A DNA stretch of 64,000 nt, taken from an uncultured Gammaproteobacteria bacterium. GTDB lineage: Bacteria; Pseudomonadota; Gammaproteobacteria; JAADHQ01. The notes beneath the pieces were generated by a model. It was not told the origin of the DNA. It searched no databases and worked only from the letters and a program-made list of their open reading frames with translations. Location of the stretch: NCBI GenBank assembly GCA_947258755.1, contig CAMYJO010000002.1, positions 208,909-272,908 on the forward strand. Reading direction: 5' to 3'. The position numbers were made by a program, and so were the translations under genes. The first letter of the stretch is position 1, and each line of letters opens with the position of its first letter. Positions 45,418 through 54,438 of the stretch are shown one piece after another.

Positions 45418-47007
45418 ATGTCCTTCGAGGAAGCCATAAGCCAGCGTCGTACCTTCGCCATTATTTCGCATCCGGATGCGGGCAAGACGACCTTGACCGA
45501 AAAACTGTTGTTGTTCGGGCGTGCTATTCAGCAATCCGGTACAGTCAAGGGCCGCAAATCTGACCGCCATGCGACCTCTGACTGGATGGAGATGGAAAAG
45601 GAACGTGGTATCTCGGTGACCTCATCGGTGATGCAGTTCCCTTTTAATGGCAAGATAATGAACCTGCTCGATACACCCGGGCATGAGGACTTTTCCGAAG
45701 ATACCTACCGTACTTTAACGGCAGTTGACTCGGCCTTGATGGTCATCGATTGTGCCAAAGGCGTCGAGGCCCGCACCATCAAATTGATGGGTGTTTGTCG
45801 TCTACGTACGACGCCGATTATTACCTTTATCAACAAACTTGACCGTGAAGGCCGTGATCCGATTGAATTGCTGGATGAAGTCGAGAGTGTGCTGGATATA
45901 AAATGTGCGCCTATTACCTGGCCGATTGGTATGGGTAAGGCCTTCAAAGGTGTGTTCAACCTAAAAGAAAATCGCATACACCTGTATAGCGCCACACACG
46001 GCGGCAAAATACAGCAGGGTGAAATCATAGATGGGCTTGATAACCCACGCCTGGATGAAGTGTTGGGTGATCAGGCGCAGGAATTGCGCGAAGAGATAGA
46101 ACTGGTGCAGGGCGCAAGTCACGAGTTTGATCTCGATGCCTATCTGGCTGGTGAGTTGACCCCGGTATTCTTCGGTTCTGCTATTAATAACTTCGGTGTG
46201 CAGGAATTACTCGAGGCCTTTGTTGAATATGCACCGGCGCCGCAAACGCGAACAACCATAAGCCGGACCGTTGAGCCGGTCGAGGACAAGCTCAGCGGCT
46301 TCGTTTTCAAGATACAGGCGAACATGGATCCGCAGCATCGTGATCGTATTGCTTTTATGCGTATATGCTCCGGACACTTTGCCAATGGCATGAAACTGCG
46401 CCATGTGCGTATTGCTCGTGATGTCAAAATCAGTAATGCAATCACCTTTATGGCTAGTGAGCGTGGTCAGGTTGAAGAGGCCTTTGCCGGTGATATTATT
46501 GGCCTGCATAATCACGGCACGATACAGATTGGTGATACCTTTACTCAGGGCGAAGACTTGCAATTTACCGGCATCCCAAATTTTGCCCCGGAACTATTCC
46601 GTCGGGTTGTGCTTAGAGATCCACTGCGCATGAAAGCATTGCAAAAGGGCTTGATTGAATTATGTGAGGAGGGTGCCTCGCAACTTTTCCGGCCACTGAA
46701 TAAAAATGATTTAATCCTCGGTGCTGTCGGTGTCTTGCAGTTCGACGTGGTCGCCTTCAGGCTGAAGGAAGAATACAATGTGGAATGTACTTTCGAGAAT
46801 GTCAATGTGGTCACTGCGCGATGGGTGTCTTGTTCTGATGAGAAGAAGTTAGAGGAATTTCGTAACAAGCTCTCTGATAATCTGGCCATCGATAGCGGCG
46901 GTAGTCTTGCCTATATTGCACCGACACGTGTTAATCTCGAATTGGCTATGGAGCGTTGGCCTGAGATTGAATTCCATGCGACCCGTGAGCATGGTATACC
47001 GTCCTAA
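45418..47007 (+). CDS. prfC: peptide chain release factor 3
   Basis: GTPase G1 motif [18 protein letters not shown], with DTPGHEDF. 529 aa. Confidence 0.95.
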
Positions 47008-47380
47008 ACTTCCTGGCAGGTGGTCTGGAGGGTGGTTTAGATTGTTTGAATTGCCCCAGATAGGTTGATGTTTTTGTCTTATAAAATGGTGTTTTACCGA
47101 TTTTTTTATATTTAATTGTGAATTAGACCATTATGATTAAAGGGAAGCTTTATCCCTCAATGTAATATCAAGATTTAATGGATGTTGAATTCTCACTGTC
47201 CTGAAAGCGATTTTTGTAAATATTGGTGTCAATCAAAACAAAAATCAACATGTTGAATACTTGTTCAGTAAACTCGATATGGTGGACAAAGAGTTTTAAT
47301 TCTTTCTAAGCTTAAATTAGGATATGATTACTCTGACTATTCAACCGTGGGTAGGTAGTATATGGGGCAGGATTAATAGT

Positions 47381-48169
47381 ATGCGGGTAAATTTCACACG
47401 GCGTATTCGTGATGCTCTGATAAGCGTGCTTGTGCCAGGAATAGTGGCCTGTGCAGCACCTGTCACCAGTCCAGAGCCGTATACGTTACAGCATGCTCGT
47501 AGACTGGAGGCCAGAATTGATGCGCAAACAATAAGCGTATCACCCACGAGAGCAATAACGGATTTACGGCAGGCATTACATCTGTATTCCTTGGCTGATG
47601 ATCTCGAAGGGCAGGTCCGTTGTCACCTGAAACTTATTCGTATTTATATCAGTCTCGAACAGACCGATACTGCAATGCAGTATTTGCAAAGTGCAAAATC
47701 CATTGCCAATACATTACAGTTACCCGAATACCTTTATGGCAGCTATTTGCTTGAAGCACGCTTGAGTGGTAAAAAGTCGGATTTTGAAACGGCCCTGAAA
47801 TGGTCTACAAGCTCTATTCAGCGAGCTGTGGTGCTGACCTATCTGTCCAGAGTGGATGAGGGATATCGGCTGATAGTGTCAAAAATGGATCAGGCTGAAG
47901 ATTCCCCGGAAGATTTTGCCTTTGTGCTTTACGAATATGCCCGGAAGCAGCGGCATGTTGGTGCAGGGGGAAATGCCCTGGTGCTGTTCAAGCAGATTGA
48001 TCATCACCTGGGAGTACGCAATACTTTACATCTGTTGGCGAAGATTTATAAGGAAAATGGTCGGCTTGAGCTGGCCAAACAATATTTTCAACGAGCGCGC
48101 GTAGTCAGTATCTCGCTTAACGATACAGCCAGGACTCGGATTATCGAGGCAGAACTGGACAGGTTCTAG
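47381..48169 (+). CDS. hypothetical lipoprotein, helical-repeat (TPR-like)
   Basis: Lipoprotein signal MRVNFTRRIRDALISVLVPGIVAC. The rest looks like helical repeats. The ORF-track start 47324 has no usable RBS. First gene of the Mla-like cluster. Confidence 0.5.
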   Translation: MRVNFTRRIRDALISVLVPGIVACAAPVTSPEPYTLQHARRLEARIDAQTISVSPTRAITDLRQALHLYSLADDLEGQVRCHLKLIRIYISLEQTDTAMQYLQSAKSIANTLQLPEYLYGSYLLEARLSGKKSDFETALKWSTSSIQRAVVLTYLSRVDEGYRLIVSKMDQAEDSPEDFAFVLYEYARKQRHVGAGGNALVLFKQIDHHLGVRNTLHLLAKIYKENGRLELAKQYFQRARVVSISLNDTARTRIIEAELDRF

Positions 48170-48173
48170 GATT

Positions 48174-48959
48174 ATGCTGGAAGCGATTGGAAGGCATGTA
48201 CTTCAGGCACTAAAACGTAGCAGCGATATACTGGGCTTATTAGCCCTGCTTGTCTCATCTAGACTCTCCATTGCGCACAGTAGTCGAAGGCTTGTTTTTT
48301 ACAAGTTGTATAGGTTGCAAATTTACTATACAGGGATACAGGGTTTTTATGTTACAGCGATCGTCTCCATACTGATAGGTTCCCTGCTGGTATTCAGACT
48401 CCCCGCTATATCACCGGCCGAACAGACTGTTACCGTATTTTCGGAGTTGTTTGTTGTGGTCATCATTCGCGAGTTGGCCCCTATTATGTGTGCATTGATT
48501 GCGATCGTTCGATCCGGTACTGCGGTAACCGCAAAGATTGGCTACCTTAAAATGTCTGGAGAATTTGAAATAGCCAAAACCCTCGGTATTGATCCTGTCC
48601 ATCTATTTCTGGTGCCAGTGTTTTTTGCTTTTCCAATCTCGATGCTGATGATGCTCATCTACTTTCTGTTTTTCAGTATGACCGCTGCATTCATAACTCT
48701 GTGGTTGCAGGATACGGGGATTGGCGCTGCGTTACTGATTGATAATATTCTTGAACGAGTGCAACTTTATGAAATTCTTGTTATTGTGATTAAATGCGTC
48801 TCCAGCGGGTTGGTAATTGGTTTGTATGCGATCCATTATGGCTCGACAGTCGAGGCGCGCCTGGCTATGGTTGCTCGCGGTATGTCCCTCGCTACGACCC
48901 GGGCTTTAGTGTTGGTGCTTTTTATCAACATAATGATATCGATATTGGCGTATCAATGA
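48174..48959 (+). CDS. MlaE-family ABC transporter permease
   Basis: 261 aa of MlaE/YrbE type (conserved EIAKTLGIDP-like region). Confidence 0.75.
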   Translation: MLEAIGRHVLQALKRSSDILGLLALLVSSRLSIAHSSRRLVFYKLYRLQIYYTGIQGFYVTAIVSILIGSLLVFRLPAISPAEQTVTVFSELFVVVIIRELAPIMCALIAIVRSGTAVTAKIGYLKMSGEFEIAKTLGIDPVHLFLVPVFFAFPISMLMMLIYFLFFSMTAAFITLWLQDTGIGAALLIDNILERVQLYEILVIVIKCVSSGLVIGLYAIHYGSTVEARLAMVARGMSLATTRALVLVLFINIMISILAYQ

Positions 48960-49627
48960 TGACTTTGCGCGTGCAGGATTTACAGATACCTTGTGATTCT
49001 GAAACTGTCATTAAGAACATATCCTTCAAAGCCGATGAGGGGGAATGCATTGTTATTAATTCGAGCGTGCTTTTACTTGGTACCTGCCTGTTGCAGGCCT
49101 TGGCGGGTATGGTCAGCGGTGTTGCTGGTCAACTGGTCTTTCAGGGTAAAGATCTAGCGGGTACACTTCCTTCCAAAGAGTTTTCTAAATTACGTGAGCA
49201 GATAGGGTATGTCTATCGTCACGGTGGGCTCATAAGTTTATTAAATGTCACTGACAACATTGCTCTGCCGCTGGCCTATCATTACAATATTAGTCGAAAG
49301 GAGCTTGCCGAAAACATTCATCGAGTTGCCACTCTCCTGGGTATCAACGAGCTGCTGGAGCTCGTTCCCGATGACCTGAATGTGACGCAGACACGTATGG
49401 TCAATTTGGCGCGAGCATTGATCAGTCGGCCTCGTTTAATCCTCATAGATGCTATTTTCGATGGGATGCCGAATATACATAAGCAGGTAGTGATCGATGC
49501 AATACAAAAGACCCAGGCTGAAGAGCGTTTTGCACTAGTTATGACTACCCGGCAACATCAGTTATTAGAACTAGCGACGGCTGCTTATGAGCTCACAGAA
49601 AACGGACTGGAGCAATCTACACTGTAA
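48956..49627 (+). CDS. degenerate ABC ATPase-like protein (MlaF-like fold, catalytic motifs lost)
   Basis: Collinear with MlaF, but Walker A is NSSVLLLGTC (no GKS/T), the signature is LNVTQTRMVNLARAL instead of LSGGQ, Walker B is LILIDAIF (DE->DA), and the H-loop His is replaced by MTTRQ. Start ATG 48956 overlaps the permease stop. Confidence 0.65.
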   Translation: MMTLRVQDLQIPCDSETVIKNISFKADEGECIVINSSVLLLGTCLLQALAGMVSGVAGQLVFQGKDLAGTLPSKEFSKLREQIGYVYRHGGLISLLNVTDNIALPLAYHYNISRKELAENIHRVATLLGINELLELVPDDLNVTQTRMVNLARALISRPRLILIDAIFDGMPNIHKQVVIDAIQKTQAEERFALVMTTRQHQLLELATAAYELTENGLEQSTL

Positions 49628-49629
49628 TT

Positions 49630-50640
49630 ATGGATAACCAGGGAAATCAGCCATATAAGATCACCTACATTGACCGCCTGGTTGGTTTTATCGTGCTTGC
49701 TGTACTGATAGTTATTGTCGCAGCTATCGTATTGCGCTATCAGGAAATCGGACCGGGTGTCAGTCGCGTCAATTACTATACAGTCCTCAATCAGGCTCAT
49801 AATATTGTGCGCGGCACTGACGTTCGCCTGGCTGGCATTCCCATTGGTCAGATAGAGAGTGTAACTCTACGAAGGGATGGGAACGTACGTGTGGATATTG
49901 TCATCTCTGATGAGTATAGGGAGTTTATTACAGAAGGATGCCGTTTGCGTGTGGCATCCTCGTTTGGCTTGAGTGCACTTATCGGCTGGACCGGTCTGCA
50001 TCTTATTCCAGGTGAAGAACCTGGTGAAACTCTGGAAGAAGGATCATTAATCGAAGCACTTCAGCCCGTAGAATTAGCAAAGACATTCAGTGACGTGGAG
50101 CTGAATAAAATGGCAGAGAACGTCAAGACAATTCTACGCAATCTCTCCGATATCAGTCGTGCGATAGGTGAAAGCGAGAACGCTATTTCTGCTACGCTTG
50201 AAAACTTGTCTGGAGTTACGCAAGATTTACGCGGTGCCGTCAATGCTGTTTCTGCAGCAGCGGCATCAGCGCAAACCGGATTCATGGCGTGGTCCGAAGC
50301 GGGGCAGAGCGTTCAAAATATTGTAGATGCATCTGATGAGGATATCAGGATGAGCGCCATCAACGCCAGAAAAGCATCGGAACAATTGAATGAATTGCTG
50401 CAAGAGCTGGGGACTGTGGTTGGGCAGCTAGGGCATGTCGTAAAACAGGTTGAAGTCGGAAGCGAGCATATCCCCACGTTGTTTTCTGAAGGGCGCATCC
50501 TGGTGGAACGTGCTAACGAGCTTACAGAACGACTTAATCGGCACTGGCTGTTGGGTGGGTCCTCACAACAGAAAAAATCTTACTACCCAAGGGTCCATCC
50601 TATCCCCGACCCAGAGTTGCCATTACCCGTTACGGAATGA
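49630..50640 (+). CDS. MCE/MlaD-family protein with long C-terminal extension
   Basis: N-terminal TM helix and MCE domain (LRRDGNVRVDIVISDEY). 336 aa. Confidence 0.75.
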   Translation: MDNQGNQPYKITYIDRLVGFIVLAVLIVIVAAIVLRYQEIGPGVSRVNYYTVLNQAHNIVRGTDVRLAGIPIGQIESVTLRRDGNVRVDIVISDEYREFITEGCRLRVASSFGLSALIGWTGLHLIPGEEPGETLEEGSLIEALQPVELAKTFSDVELNKMAENVKTILRNLSDISRAIGESENAISATLENLSGVTQDLRGAVNAVSAAAASAQTGFMAWSEAGQSVQNIVDASDEDIRMSAINARKASEQLNELLQELGTVVGQLGHVVKQVEVGSEHIPTLFSEGRILVERANELTERLNRHWLLGGSSQQKKSYYPRVHPIPDPELPLPVTE

Positions 50641-51039
50641 GTATAATACTTGATAAATATCTCTTGCCTGTACGGCAATCAATGCAGTATGAAGTCATTT
50701 TACAGCCTATAAAAGGGTGGTGTCATAATGTATAGCTGGGTTGCCCAAGGGTTATGGGTGTGGACTCTTTTGTCAAGATAATACAGAAAATGTTGCTAAT
50801 GTTGCGGTGGAAGTCTTACATGAATAAGGGTCTTTTTAACTATTTGTAAGTAAGCGATTGGCTTAAATAAGTAATGGCAGAACAGGTGCAGGAATATTTA
50901 CCTGGAAAATATAATTAAACCTTGATTCAGACGAACAGTATACGGTTTCCAAATATCGCAATTCTTGTTAGTCTAGGCGGTAATTATTATCTAAAAAAAA
51001 GAGTTTCTCGTCCGCTTGATTTTCTAAGCAGGGAGAATA

Positions 51040-53155
51040 TTGAATTGTGAAAATATGTTAAATGTCATCATCAAGGTAATTCTCAGGCTGGCTTTTCGTA
51101 TACAAGTCAGAGGGCTGTCTCATTATGATGCGGCGGGTGACAGGGTTCTTGTCATTGCCAATCATGTGTCACTGCTGGATGCATTAATTATTAAACTCTT
51201 TTTGTCGAATGACCTTGCCTATGCGATAAATAAATCGGCAGCCGATCGTTGGTGGGCCAAACCTTTTGTGCATATTCTTGATTTTTGTGTGATTGATACA
51301 CATAACCCGCTGTCGCTAAAAAAACTGATTGATTTTCTGCAACAGGACAACAAGGTTCTGCTGTTTCCTGAAGGGCGACTATCGAATAATAATTCGTTAA
51401 TGAAGATCTATCAGTCGACAGGGATGGTGCTTGATAAAACAGACGCGACTATCGTACCGGTACATATAGAGGGTAGTCAGTATTCATTTTTCACGCGTGC
51501 CCAGGGTACCGTCAGGCGCAGGCTTTTCCCGAAGATCACGTTAACTGTTTTGCCAGGCGAAAAAATGAAACTGGCCGATGAGCTCAAGGGGCAGAAGCGT
51601 AGAGAAGCATCGGTTGAATATTTAACAGCATTGATGCGCGAAGCGAAGTTTCAACGGCGGACGTCATGTCATTCTTGAAGATATTAAGCGTAAGCCGCTT
51701 AATTACAATCAAGTTATCTTCCGTATTATTCTGCTTTCCCGATTACTGGAAAAAGAGACCAGTCAAGAGCAGGCTGTAGGTATGTTTTTACCCAACACGG
51801 TTATTGCAACTGTCATGGTCTATGCCTTGAGTTTCAGTGGTCGATGTCCGGCGATGTTGAACTATGGTGCAGGTAAAAAAGCATTATTGAGTAGTATTAC
51901 CAACGCCAACATACAATATGTTTATACATCGCGAGCGTTTATAAAAGAAGCCGGCCTTGAAGAACAGTTGCAGGCCATGAGTGAGCATACGCAGGTGCGT
52001 TATGTTGAAGACATGGCGGCGCAGTTAAGTCTCGGTAGCAAGATTAGTAGTTATTTCATAAGTTTTTTTGCAGGTAGTTATTATAAAAAATTCGAGCAAT
52101 CCATTTCAGCTGATGATACTGCTGTCATCCTGTTTACATCGGGTTCAGAGGGTCTGCCAAAAGGTGTGGCACTGAGCCATAGGAATTTGTTAGCAAACTG
52201 TTGGCAAGTGATTTGTATACTCGATTTTAGTCACAAAGATGTATTGTTGAACTTTTTACCGATCTTTCATTCCTTTGGCCTGACGGCCGGAACCATTTTG
52301 CCGCTTGAGCACGGCATACGCTTTTTACAATATCCTTCGCCCTTGCACTATAAAATCATACCCGAGTTGGTGTATGAAACCGATACCACGGTGATCTTTG
52401 CAACCAATACCTTCCTTAATGGTTATGGTCAGCAGGCCCATCCCTATGATTTTCATACATTACGCTATGTGTTTGCCGGTGCCGAATCACTGCAGGAGTC
52501 GACAGAAAACTTATGGCTGGAAAAATTCGGCATACGAATCCTGCAGGGTTATGGTGCGACTGAAACCTCGCCTGTGTTGGCAGCGAATACCATGTTGACC
52601 TATAAAAGAGGCGCGGTCGGTCATCTGGTGCCGGGTATGGAATATCGATTGATTGATGTCCCAGGTATAAATAATGGAGGTCAGTTGCAGGTCAAGGGGG
52701 CGAATGTGATGAAGGGCTACTTGCTGGCGGATCGCCCCGGTGAGATTGTTCCGCCTTCAACCCCGGAGTCTGGTGCTGGCTGGTATGATACCGGGGATAT
52801 TGTTGATATAGATGAGGATGGCTATCTTTTTATTCGAGGCCGCGCAAAACGCTTTGCCAAGATCGGCGGCGAGATGATCTCGCTGGTTGCGGTAGAGAAC
52901 ATGGTCGCAAAGACCTGGCCAGATTATTTGCATGCCGTCATCAGTATGGCAGATGAATCCAAGGGTGAGCAGCTGATTTTATTTACCGAATTCAGTCAGG
53001 CTGACCGTAAGAGTTTGATCGCACAATTCAGGCAGGAAGGCCTGAGCGATTTGCACATCCCCAAAAAAATAAAATTGATCGAGCAGTTGCCTTTATTGCC
53101 TAGTGGTAAGATAGATTATGTTGTTTTGCAGGAAGAAATTGTGTCGGCATTGTGA
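51040..53155 (+). pseudogene. aas: aas (2-acylglycerophosphoethanolamine acyltransferase / acyl-ACP synthetase), apparent +1 frameshift between the two domains
   Basis: Acyltransferase part 51040-51678 is in frame 1. AMP-binding part 51782-53155 is in frame 2. Frame 2 is open from 51635 and encodes linker-like sequence (GGRHVILEDIKRKPLNYNQVIFRIILLSRLLEKETSQEQAVGMFLPN) continuous with the synthetase domain. A fused Aas lies next to a transporter gene in E. coli. Confidence 0.55.
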
Positions 53156-54438
53156 GTCATCAGCACGGTAACAAGCAAATCATATCCTGGGCCTTGTACG
53201 ATTGGGCCAACTCCGCCTATGCAGTGACCGTCATGACGGGTTTTTTTCCGTTGTTTTTCAAGCAATACTGGGCCGACACATTAAGCCCGGAACAAAGCAC
53301 CTATCAACTGGGATTAGCCAATTCCATTGCCAGCCTGAGTATTGTCATATTAGCGCCCCTGCTCGGTTCGATTGCAGATCAGGCCGGGAGTAAAAAACGT
53401 TTCCTGTTGTTATTTACCTTCCTTGGTGTCGCCATGTGTGCTGGCTTGTTTCTGGTCAAACAGGGTGACTGGGAGCTGGCGATTATTATTTATATGCTGG
53501 CGTCGATCGGTTTTATGGGCGGTGTTAGTTTTTCCGATTCACTACTGGTGCATGTTGCCCCCAAGAAAAAATTAGATCGGGTCTCTGCACTCGGTTATGG
53601 CCTCGGTTATATCGGCGGCGGATTATTGTTTGCGTTATGCGTATGGATGTTACGCAGTCCTAGCGCCTTCGGTTTGAGTGAAGCAGCGGATGCAATACGC
53701 TTGTCTTTCGTTCTGGTCGCAGCCTGGTGGCTGGTGTTTGCGATACCCGTATTTATCTGGGTGGCGGAACCGCCGACTGCAGGGAATGCAAAGGGCATTA
53801 GAGAGAGCACCTTCGCTGGCATCCGTCAGCTGCGCGATACTTTTCAGGAGATCAGGCAATTAAAAATCGTGTTTACCTTTCTATTGGCCTACTGGTTGTA
53901 TATAGACGGCGTTGACACGATTGTGCGTATGGCGGTTGACTATGGGCTTTCATTGAATCTGGATAGTGGCGATTTAATTCTGGCGATACTCATCACTCAG
54001 TTCATTGGTTTTCCGTCGGCAATCCTGTTTGGCCACCTGGGTGAGAGGTTGGGGCCGAAGACGGGTATACTCATCGCCCTGGCGGTATATATTTTTGTGG
54101 TCCTGTGGGCCTATCAGATGGAATCGAGCTGGGAGTTTTATGTATTGGCAACACTGATTGGCTTGGTCCAGGGAGGCGTGCAATCGTTAAGTCGTTCGCT
54201 GTATGCTCGCATCATACCGGCACACCGGTCCGCTGAGTTCTTTGGTTTTTATAATATGCTGGGTAAATTTGCGGCGGTGTTGGGCCCGATTATTGTCGGC
54301 TGGGTGGCGCTGATATCGGGCAGTCACCGGGTTGCCATGTTATCGATCATTGTTCTGTTTGTACTGGGTGCAATCTTGTTACTCAGGGTGGATATCAATA
54401 AAGGCATGCAAATAGCGAGATCCCTGGATGAGACGTAG
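53152..54438 (+). CDS. MFS transporter (Atg22/UMF1-like)
   Basis: WALYDWANSAYAV N-terminal motif; 12-TM organisation; 4-nt overlap with the aas 3' part. Confidence 0.7.
   Translation: MSHQHGNKQIISWALYDWANSAYAVTVMTGFFPLFFKQYWADTLSPEQSTYQLGLANSIASLSIVILAPLLGSIADQAGSKKRFLLLFTFLGVAMCAGLFLVKQGDWELAIIIYMLASIGFMGGVSFSDSLLVHVAPKKKLDRVSALGYGLGYIGGGLLFALCVWMLRSPSAFGLSEAADAIRLSFVLVAAWWLVFAIPVFIWVAEPPTAGNAKGIRESTFAGIRQLRDTFQEIRQLKIVFTFLLAYWLYIDGVDTIVRMAVDYGLSLNLDSGDLILAILITQFIGFPSAILFGHLGERLGPKTGILIALAVYIFVVLWAYQMESSWEFYVLATLIGLVQGGVQSLSRSLYARIIPAHRSAEFFGFYNMLGKFAAVLGPIIVGWVALISGSHRVAMLSIIVLFVLGAILLLRVDINKGMQIARSLDET

Follow-up and report, generated by a model that had tools for sequence, protein, structure and literature searches.

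We describe here an operon for a transporter of the MCE type whose only nucleotide-binding domain (NBD) has lost the motifs by which ATP-binding cassette (ABC) proteins handle ATP. The operon lies in a stretch of 64,000 nt from an uncultured Gammaproteobacteria bacterium (contig CAMYJO010000002.1, positions 208,909 to 272,908 of the forward strand), called the window throughout, and the degenerate subunit, here named pNBD (pseudo-NBD), is encoded between the genes for an MlaE-like permease and an MCE protein. Its sequence and its predicted structure both point to pNBD as a full-length NBD of the MlaF type, a conserved descendant of an MlaF-type ABC ATPase. The explanation that we favour, with a probability of roughly 0.55, is that pNBD would be a nucleotide-free structural subunit docked on the permease, within an MCE system that has no ATP hydrolysis of its own. 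As far as the literature and the sequence library that we searched extend, the cassette is the first bacterial ABC-type transporter operon with a sole NBD that is fully degenerate; the literature search returned no description of fully degenerate MlaF paralogues or of the pNBD family.

Fold and motifs of pNBD

What kind of protein is pNBD? A preliminary description of this DNA, made from the letters alone, had read the open reading frame (ORF) at 48956-49627 as collinear with MlaF-type NBDs. Coordinates and frame were right, and the ORF translates to 223 aa, whose best sequence relatives in the PDB are the MlaF proteins of A. baumannii, E. coli and P. aeruginosa (E ~1e-15), with matches that are collinear over residues 5-215. 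The alignment to the Pfam profile ABC_tran (PF00005), proposed there as a check, gave 44.4 bits (cut-off 25; E 3.3e-11), the match spanning pNBD residues 43-165, that is, profile positions 25-133, and skipping the Walker A part. An AlphaFold2 (AF2) model built on 26 family members (pLDDT 92.3, pTM 0.90) has a RecA-like core and a helical subdomain, with template-modelling (TM) scores of 0.88-0.91 to MlaF, LolD and MceG. In Foldseek, the top matches were E. coli MlaF structures (6xgz, 6xbd; TM 0.88-0.91, 22% identity), followed by LolD, MetN, MceG and FtsE. The C-terminal extension of MlaF is absent, pNBD ending at residue 223 and MlaF chains having 263-269 aa. The protein is not to be filed as MlaF, because its catalytic features fail and its NCBIfam scores are far below the cut-offs: 59.1 bits for the MlaF model NF008809 (equivalog cut-off 441) and 85.6 for the best model, DevA (cut-off 295.8), with no model reaching its own. 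The MlaE and MlaD equivalog scores of the cassette are likewise far under their cut-offs. We place the start of pNBD at 48956 or 48959 and reject a longer ORF from 48794, because the homologues open with M(M)TLRV or MILxV.

The positions of pNBD and of its former ABC motifs, as assigned by alignment, are the following.

48956..49627, + strand: pNBD, 223 aa, predicted MlaF-derived NBD fold, catalytic motifs replaced
49061..49084, + strand: Walker A equivalent SSVLLLGT, residues 36-43 (canonical GxSGxGK[ST])
49217..49219, + strand: Q-loop position, Gln replaced by Arg88 (Glu in the distant clade)
49376..49390, + strand: signature equivalent LNVTQ, L141-Q145 (for LSGGQ/M)
49436..49453, + strand: Walker B equivalent LILIDA, Asp165 kept, catalytic Glu replaced by Ala166
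49544..49552, + strand: H-loop region TTR, without His

Four of these losses had been listed in the preliminary description, namely a Walker A motif without the GK[ST] Lys, a signature reading LNVTQ in place of LSGGQ, a Walker B catalytic Glu changed to Ala and a replaced H-loop His. All four are borne out, and the Q-loop Gln adds a fifth. In Walker A, the three Gly and the Lys are all gone and the Lys position is taken by Gly42 in the alignment to canonical NBDs. In the AF2 model, S36 is the last residue of the strand and a helix begins at L39, three residues before the canonical GK[ST]; because this helix starts straight after a two-residue turn, the model predicts that pNBD has no Gly-rich phosphate-binding loop. 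The D-loop reads FDGMP for the canonical SGLD, and the H-loop position falls by alignment on T198 or R199, neither of which is His. ATP hydrolysis by ABC NBDs requires the Walker A Lys with its Gly-rich loop, the Walker B Glu and the H-loop His. Since motifs required by established ABC enzymology are lost, pNBD should be unable to hydrolyse ATP, and from motif loss alone we infer an ATP-dead protein that lacks the residues needed either to bind or to hydrolyse the nucleotide.

Conservation of the pNBD family

How widespread is this pattern? A sequence search covering 5.8 billion proteins placed pNBD in a family of about 90 clusters at 90% identity, whose members are 216-223 aa long and 30-100% identical to pNBD; in a profile search covering 1.84 billion representatives at 50% identity, about 35 family-like clusters came ahead of generic NBDs. 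For the family as a whole the lengths run from 216 to 229 aa. Non-canonical motifs at all five sites are common to all of the ~90 clusters, with the Walker B Glu retained in a distant clade. In the clade to which the window belongs the motifs read VLLLGT, VYR, LN[VI][AT]Q and ID[AG]; in the larger and more distant clade they read VLDG[GA]TS, VYE, LNDVQTR and IDELEGGM, LNDVQTR being near-invariant. That the same motifs are replaced across the family and that the replacements themselves are conserved within each clade argue that the pattern is not due to chance. The existence of this conserved family, the Walker B Glu of its distant members and a lipoprotein gene upstream of the permease (see below) all go beyond the preliminary description.

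Nineteen alignment columns are invariant. They cluster at GLISL..NIALPL..H (residues 91-109) and RxVNLARAL (the core helix, 147-155), with D165 in addition. The block at 91-109 is the MlaF-type region after the Q-loop, a region that in ABC transporters forms the groove for the coupling helix of the permease, and in pNBD it would thus be expected to face the permease.

Against the two closest genomic relatives, the ratio of nonsynonymous to synonymous substitution rates (dN/dS) was 0.087-0.091 for pNBD, 0.05-0.06 for the permease (the most constrained gene of the cassette), 0.09-0.11 for the MCE protein and 0.15-0.20 for the tetratricopeptide repeat (TPR) protein encoded upstream, with 0.025 for PrfC as a comparison; dS is high (1.2-1.8), so that these ratios are approximate yet far below 1. 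They indicate a gene under purifying selection and not a decaying one. Could pNBD nonetheless be a decaying pseudogene or an artefact of sequencing or frame, or else bind ATP through non-canonical residues? A nearby aas gene is indeed broken by a frameshift or deletion. However, the pNBD ORF is intact with a dN/dS of ~0.09, its fold is confidently predicted, and the replaced motifs recur in the ~90 clusters and in the loci found in genomes (28, two of them not true members); as for cryptic ATP binding, alignment and model give a two-residue turn in place of the Gly-rich P-loop and no Lys. We therefore consider this family of explanations very improbable. The two ways in which the preliminary description had allowed that it might be wrong are made very improbable as well: a sequencing error by the conservation of the replaced motifs across family members, and a poor alignment of a protein that is not ABC-like by the PF00005 and MlaF fold matches.

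A further explanation is that the former ATP pocket has been repurposed for something other than nucleotides, for example a small molecule or a cation, and that the pNBD dimer acts as a ligand-gated switch of the MCE conduit. The ex-signature loop and the replacement of the P-loop are highly conserved within each clade, and five of the residues that line the pocket in the distant clade are acidic (D40, E88, D143, D165 and E166), which in the clade of the window have changed together to L40/L41, R88, V143 and A166. This concerted swap, however, separates two clades only and may be a single event rather than statistical covariation; none of the analyses run indicates a ligand, and the pocket in the clade of the window is hydrophobic or neutral, which suits protein-protein packing better than a ligand. 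We regard a repurposed pocket as unlikely.

Degenerate NBDs were also seen outside the family. Partly degenerate NBDs are encoded in further MlaE-NBD-MlaD operons, of Verrucomicrobia-like, Chitinispirillales and Planctomycetota origin (L029:4171-7046, L030:3079-6423 and L026:2963-5381). These NBDs retain the Walker A Lys and have lost one or more of signature, catalytic Glu and His: the P0098 NBD reads WSGKTD, LSRGM and IDSP and is without the His, in P0095 the signature alone is degenerate (LGAAQ) and a TPR gene lies downstream, and the L026 NBD keeps GSGKS with LSAYQ and LDDP and is without the His. Motif erosion in MCE-linked NBDs thus appears graded, and it may have had several origins. 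Among the matches in the representative library, P0155 and P0162 are single-domain NBDs that score just under the family and have an NVALPLRYH block in common. They keep Walker A, the Q-loop, the D-E pair and the His, with a degenerate signature (LAEGE and LTTSQ), and they may be a sister group at the first step of degeneration.

The cassette and its genomic setting

Four tightly packed genes occupy 47.3-50.6 kb on the + strand of the window. Besides pNBD they are the following.

47381..48169, + strand: TPR-repeat lipoprotein (predicted), which heads the cassette; ORF from 47324, likely start Met at 47381
48174..48959, + strand: MlaE-like ABC permease, 261 aa (Pfam MlaE PF02405, 4e-30)
49630..50640, + strand: MCE (MlaD-like) protein, 336 aa, with an N-terminal transmembrane helix, one MCE domain and a C-terminal region

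The order permease, degenerate NBD, MCE protein and the translational coupling reported in the preliminary description are both correct. The pNBD start overlaps the permease stop (caATGAtg, sharing ATGA), and the MCE start follows 2 nt past the pNBD stop (TAAttATG). A scan for promoters and terminators over 46900-51200 found fewer sites than in shuffled sequence and was uninformative.

The permease family retains the core motifs RELGP, RSxTAxTAEIG and SxxTT, and the sequence matches of the permease in the PDB are MlaE of P. aeruginosa, E. coli and A. baumannii and mycobacterial YrbE1A. The MCE protein matches Pfam MlaD (PF02470, 4e-10) over residues 48-111 and TIGR00996 (Mtu_fam_mce, 1.5e-17) over residues 20-274, with a transmembrane segment at residues 17-35 by hydropathy. 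Its C-terminal ~150 residues are predicted to be helical (155-232, 240-277 and 281-303), as read from an AF2 model built on a 12-sequence alignment, a poor model (pLDDT 45.6) of which secondary structure alone was used; the helical region has no sequence match in the PDB except a designed coiled coil. Neither the cassette genes nor those conserved neighbours that were scanned encode a STAS (MlaB) protein.

The TPR protein (Pfam TPR_8 2.5e-8, TPR_12 3.4e-8) is predicted to be a lipoprotein, because its signal peptide, MRVNFTRRIRDALISVLVPGIVA, ends directly before the Cys of a lipobox (47450-47452, residue 43 of the long ORF), and this Cys is conserved: with the lipobox L/I/V-x-[AGS]-C it is kept in 14 of 16 aligned homologues, the N-terminus being lacking or masked in the remaining two (L002 and L010). 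We infer an outer-membrane location. The ORF from 47324 would add 19 N-terminal residues that have no counterpart in the homologues. The Pfam scan gave no PqiC-like match for this lipoprotein.

Where is the cassette found? A scan of 185,579 species genomes yielded 28 loci, 26 of them in Gammaproteobacteria. Closest are two uncultured gammaproteobacterial metagenome-assembled genomes (MAGs), with 77-79% identity in pNBD and 93% in PrfC; the other hosts include a Sedimenticolaceae MAG, 'Milos-ODIII6', many Pseudomonadales MAGs (Azotimanducaceae/HTCC2089, Ketobacter) and three cultured Catenovulum genomes, so that a family member is held by a cultured organism, Catenovulum agarivorans. A locus in a Planctomycetota MAG and a weak deltaproteobacterial match, both among the 28, were judged not to be true family members. 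In 24-27 of the 28 loci the genes for permease, pNBD and MCE protein lie side by side: the MlaE permease adjoins pNBD in 27 and the MCE gene does so in 24, the rest being truncated contigs or outliers. A homologue of the TPR lipoprotein lies directly upstream of the permease in 19 loci. Outside the cassette, the flanks vary among genomes of the window's clade, other members having unrelated genes there (GGDEF/EAL, UbiA, HAD, methyl-accepting chemotaxis protein, Na/Pi cotransporter), and because the flanks differ the four genes can be regarded as a self-contained cassette.

No other ABC NBD, MlaE or MCE gene is present in the 64-kb window, and no canonical NBD is found among the conserved neighbours at any locus. 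L021 is the only locus with an extra NBD within 8 kb of the cassette; this NBD, 7 kb distant, is that of a canonical ABC ATPase with no relation to the cassette.

Downstream of the cassette in the window is an aas-like gene (51040-53155, + strand; acyl-ACP-phospholipid acyltransferase / acyl-ACP synthetase), which is split: its two parts lie in different frames, as the ORFs 51040-51678 and 51782-53155. An intact orthologue of 740 aa in L001, the closest relative, aligns over residues 23-223 in one frame and 238-739 in another, and ~15 codons are absent near 51650-51665. The split is a frameshift or a deletion, reflecting either a pseudogene or an assembly error. A gene for an ATG22-like transporter of the major facilitator superfamily (MFS) follows (53152-54438).

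In the Pseudomonadales MAGs and in Catenovulum, the cassette sits within a conserved cluster of ~10 genes (L007:1695-10917, L013:2505-10726 and equivalents in L006-L025). There the cassette is preceded, in this order, by LPP20-like lipoproteins, an MltC-like SLT lytic transglycosylase and a second TPR protein, and followed by a 620-aa GNA1162-like/fn3/beta-helix protein, a further LPP20-like protein and a DUF4384 protein. The cluster looks like an undescribed envelope-spanning assembly; our literature search returned nothing on LPP20/GNA1162/DUF4384 clusters linked to MCE. Such a setting would suit a module that is not primarily a transporter at all but anchors an envelope-spanning structure in the inner membrane, pNBD being a structural foot on the cytoplasmic side. 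However, in the window and in L001-L005 the surroundings of the cassette lack this cluster, and to our knowledge MlaE and MCE domains are known only from the transport of lipids or other hydrophobic substrates. An anchor role therefore seems to us improbable, more so than a repurposed pocket.

Proposed mechanism and comparison with known systems

How might a permease work with an NBD that handles no ATP? The preliminary description had offered two options, an ATPase borrowed in trans or a static scaffold. Our analysis favours the structural scaffold, because pNBD is under purifying selection, keeps the MlaF-type block of the Q-loop and helical subdomain and is coupled to the permease. A pair of pNBD copies, neither of them binding or hydrolysing ATP, would sit against the coupling helices on the cytoplasmic side of the permease dimer and, as an immobile clamp or cap, would keep the permease stable in a single conformation. 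The complex would then be an ATP-independent portal between the inner membrane and the channel of the MCE hexamer, through which lipid or another hydrophobic cargo might move down its gradient or be driven by a partner elsewhere; no conserved charged residues stood out in the transmembrane helices of the permease as a sign of possible proton coupling. The helical C-terminal half of the MCE protein would fit a needle-type MCE protein such as those of Mce1 and PA3213, an assignment that is tentative given the low-confidence model. A candidate docking partner at the outer membrane is the TPR lipoprotein, in analogy to PqiC and PA3214.

The other option is a borrowed ATPase. A canonical MlaF or another NBD encoded elsewhere could drive the permease, either replacing pNBD or forming a heterodimer with it, much as MceG does for several mycobacterial Mce permeases. 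The MceG gene lies outside the mce operons, and most Gammaproteobacteria carry mlaFEDCB. Mycobacterial Mce systems share an ATPase that is complexed with YrbE permeases, and the Mce1 complex (8fed) is among our fold and sequence matches. Moreover, no canonical NBD is available in cis, either in the window or among conserved neighbours, so any ATP drive must come in trans. On the other hand, translation of pNBD is coupled to that of the permease and its sequence is strongly conserved, so that pNBD should itself fill the docking sites for NBDs. A pNBD:MlaF heterodimer would contain two defective composite sites, one without Walker A, the Walker B Glu and the H-loop and the other without the signature, and the Mce operons that borrow MceG hold no NBD gene, whereas in this cassette an NBD gene is always kept. 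We consider a borrowed ATPase about as unlikely as a repurposed pocket.

Several points weigh against the structural, nucleotide-free role that we prefer. A purely passive clamp would leave unexplained why the ex-signature loop (LNDVQTR in the distant clade) is conserved, a pattern that hints at an interaction or a ligand where ATP once bound. A canonical MlaF or other NBD acting in trans is possible, the search for other NBD genes having covered the 64-kb window. ATP independence is argued from motif loss alone, pNBD is presumed to dock on the permease and to form a dimer, and the trans-envelope needle is tentative, the MCE model being poor (pLDDT 45.6). The lipid-related neighbours were set aside as a functional clue, the aas/MFS adjacency being seen only in the window and in L001. 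A bolder version of the nucleotide-free role, which we put forward as a tentative idea, is that of an MCE transporter with ABC architecture that works without nucleotides, in which a protein-only dimer, permanent or gated by a cation or ligand, sets the conformation of the permease, and whose wider form in Pseudomonadales and Catenovulum might be the inner-membrane base of an undescribed multi-lipoprotein envelope machine. If this were true, lipid traffic through an MlaE/MCE machine would need no ATP.

Why should a dead NBD matter? The energising of MCE transport and the direction in which lipids move are two long-running questions of envelope biology, and the role of ATP hydrolysis by MlaF is debated, being held to be required for lipid movement or for one direction only. 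The pNBD family offers a natural experiment, in which the MlaE/MlaF/MCE architecture has been kept under purifying selection and the residues that handle ATP have been removed. It bears in this way on how MCE transport is energised and is relevant to both the MCE and the ABC fields. Because cultured Catenovulum agarivorans carries a family member, the question is directly testable.

Degenerate nucleotide sites are themselves familiar. TM287/288, TAP, CFTR and ABCG5/G8 are heterodimeric ABC exporters in which a degenerate site, still able to bind ATP, is paired with a fully competent one (PMC7756269), and degenerate sites known so far always have such a partner. The degenerate sites of the TM287/288 type carry substitutions of the catalytic Glu, the H-loop and the signature, as pNBD does, but the sole NBD gene of the cassette also lacks the P-loop, and both sites of a homodimer would be empty. 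MCE systems without an ATPase of their own are known too. PqiABC and LetAB have no ABC components, and the field has yet to establish what energises them (PMC13017536); they resemble the cassette as MCE envelope systems without an ATPase of their own, although their membrane subunits, PqiA and LetA, show no relation to MlaE and lack any NBD-like partner. Because Pqi and Let lack ABC components, an MCE system without ATP has a precedent, whereas one that keeps a dead NBD does not.

The Mce1 and Mce4 systems with MceG (8fed) resemble the cassette in pairing a permease of the YrbE/MlaE type with MCE proteins that contain helical domains, predicted ones in the case of the cassette. Their operons encode six different MCE proteins and no NBD, while the cassette has one MCE gene and a dedicated dead NBD. 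The likeness is closer to MlaFEDB of E. coli, A. baumannii and P. aeruginosa, which shares with the cassette the MlaE-type permease, an NBD with the MlaF-type fold and an MCE protein; in sequence as in structure, the best match to pNBD is MlaF, and both carry the 'PL..H' block after the Q-loop. In contrast to MlaFEDB, the NBD of the cassette has neither the ATP motifs nor the C-terminal extension (223 vs 269 aa), the MlaB STAS partner is missing, and the gene order is E-F-D instead of F-E-D. The cassette also has an MCE protein much longer than the soluble ring of MlaD, with a long tail predicted to be helical, and an added TPR lipoprotein. Judged from these sequence relationships, the cassette appears both to work like and to descend from the MlaFED type of MCE-ABC system.

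Among characterised architectures the nearest is that of PA3211-PA3214, a tripartite trans-envelope system of permease, ATPase, needle-type MCE protein and PqiC-like outer-membrane lipoprotein (PMC13631591), which we liken to the cassette by gene order and description. The order permease-NBD-MCE is the same, both operons include a lipoprotein, and the MCE proteins (312 aa, and 336 aa in the cassette) are similar in size, with a C-terminal helical region that in the cassette is a prediction. The lipoprotein of PA3211-PA3214 is PqiC-like and encoded downstream, whereas that of the cassette is a TPR protein encoded upstream, and where PA3212 is described as an ATPase, the cassette carries pNBD, whose motifs are dead.

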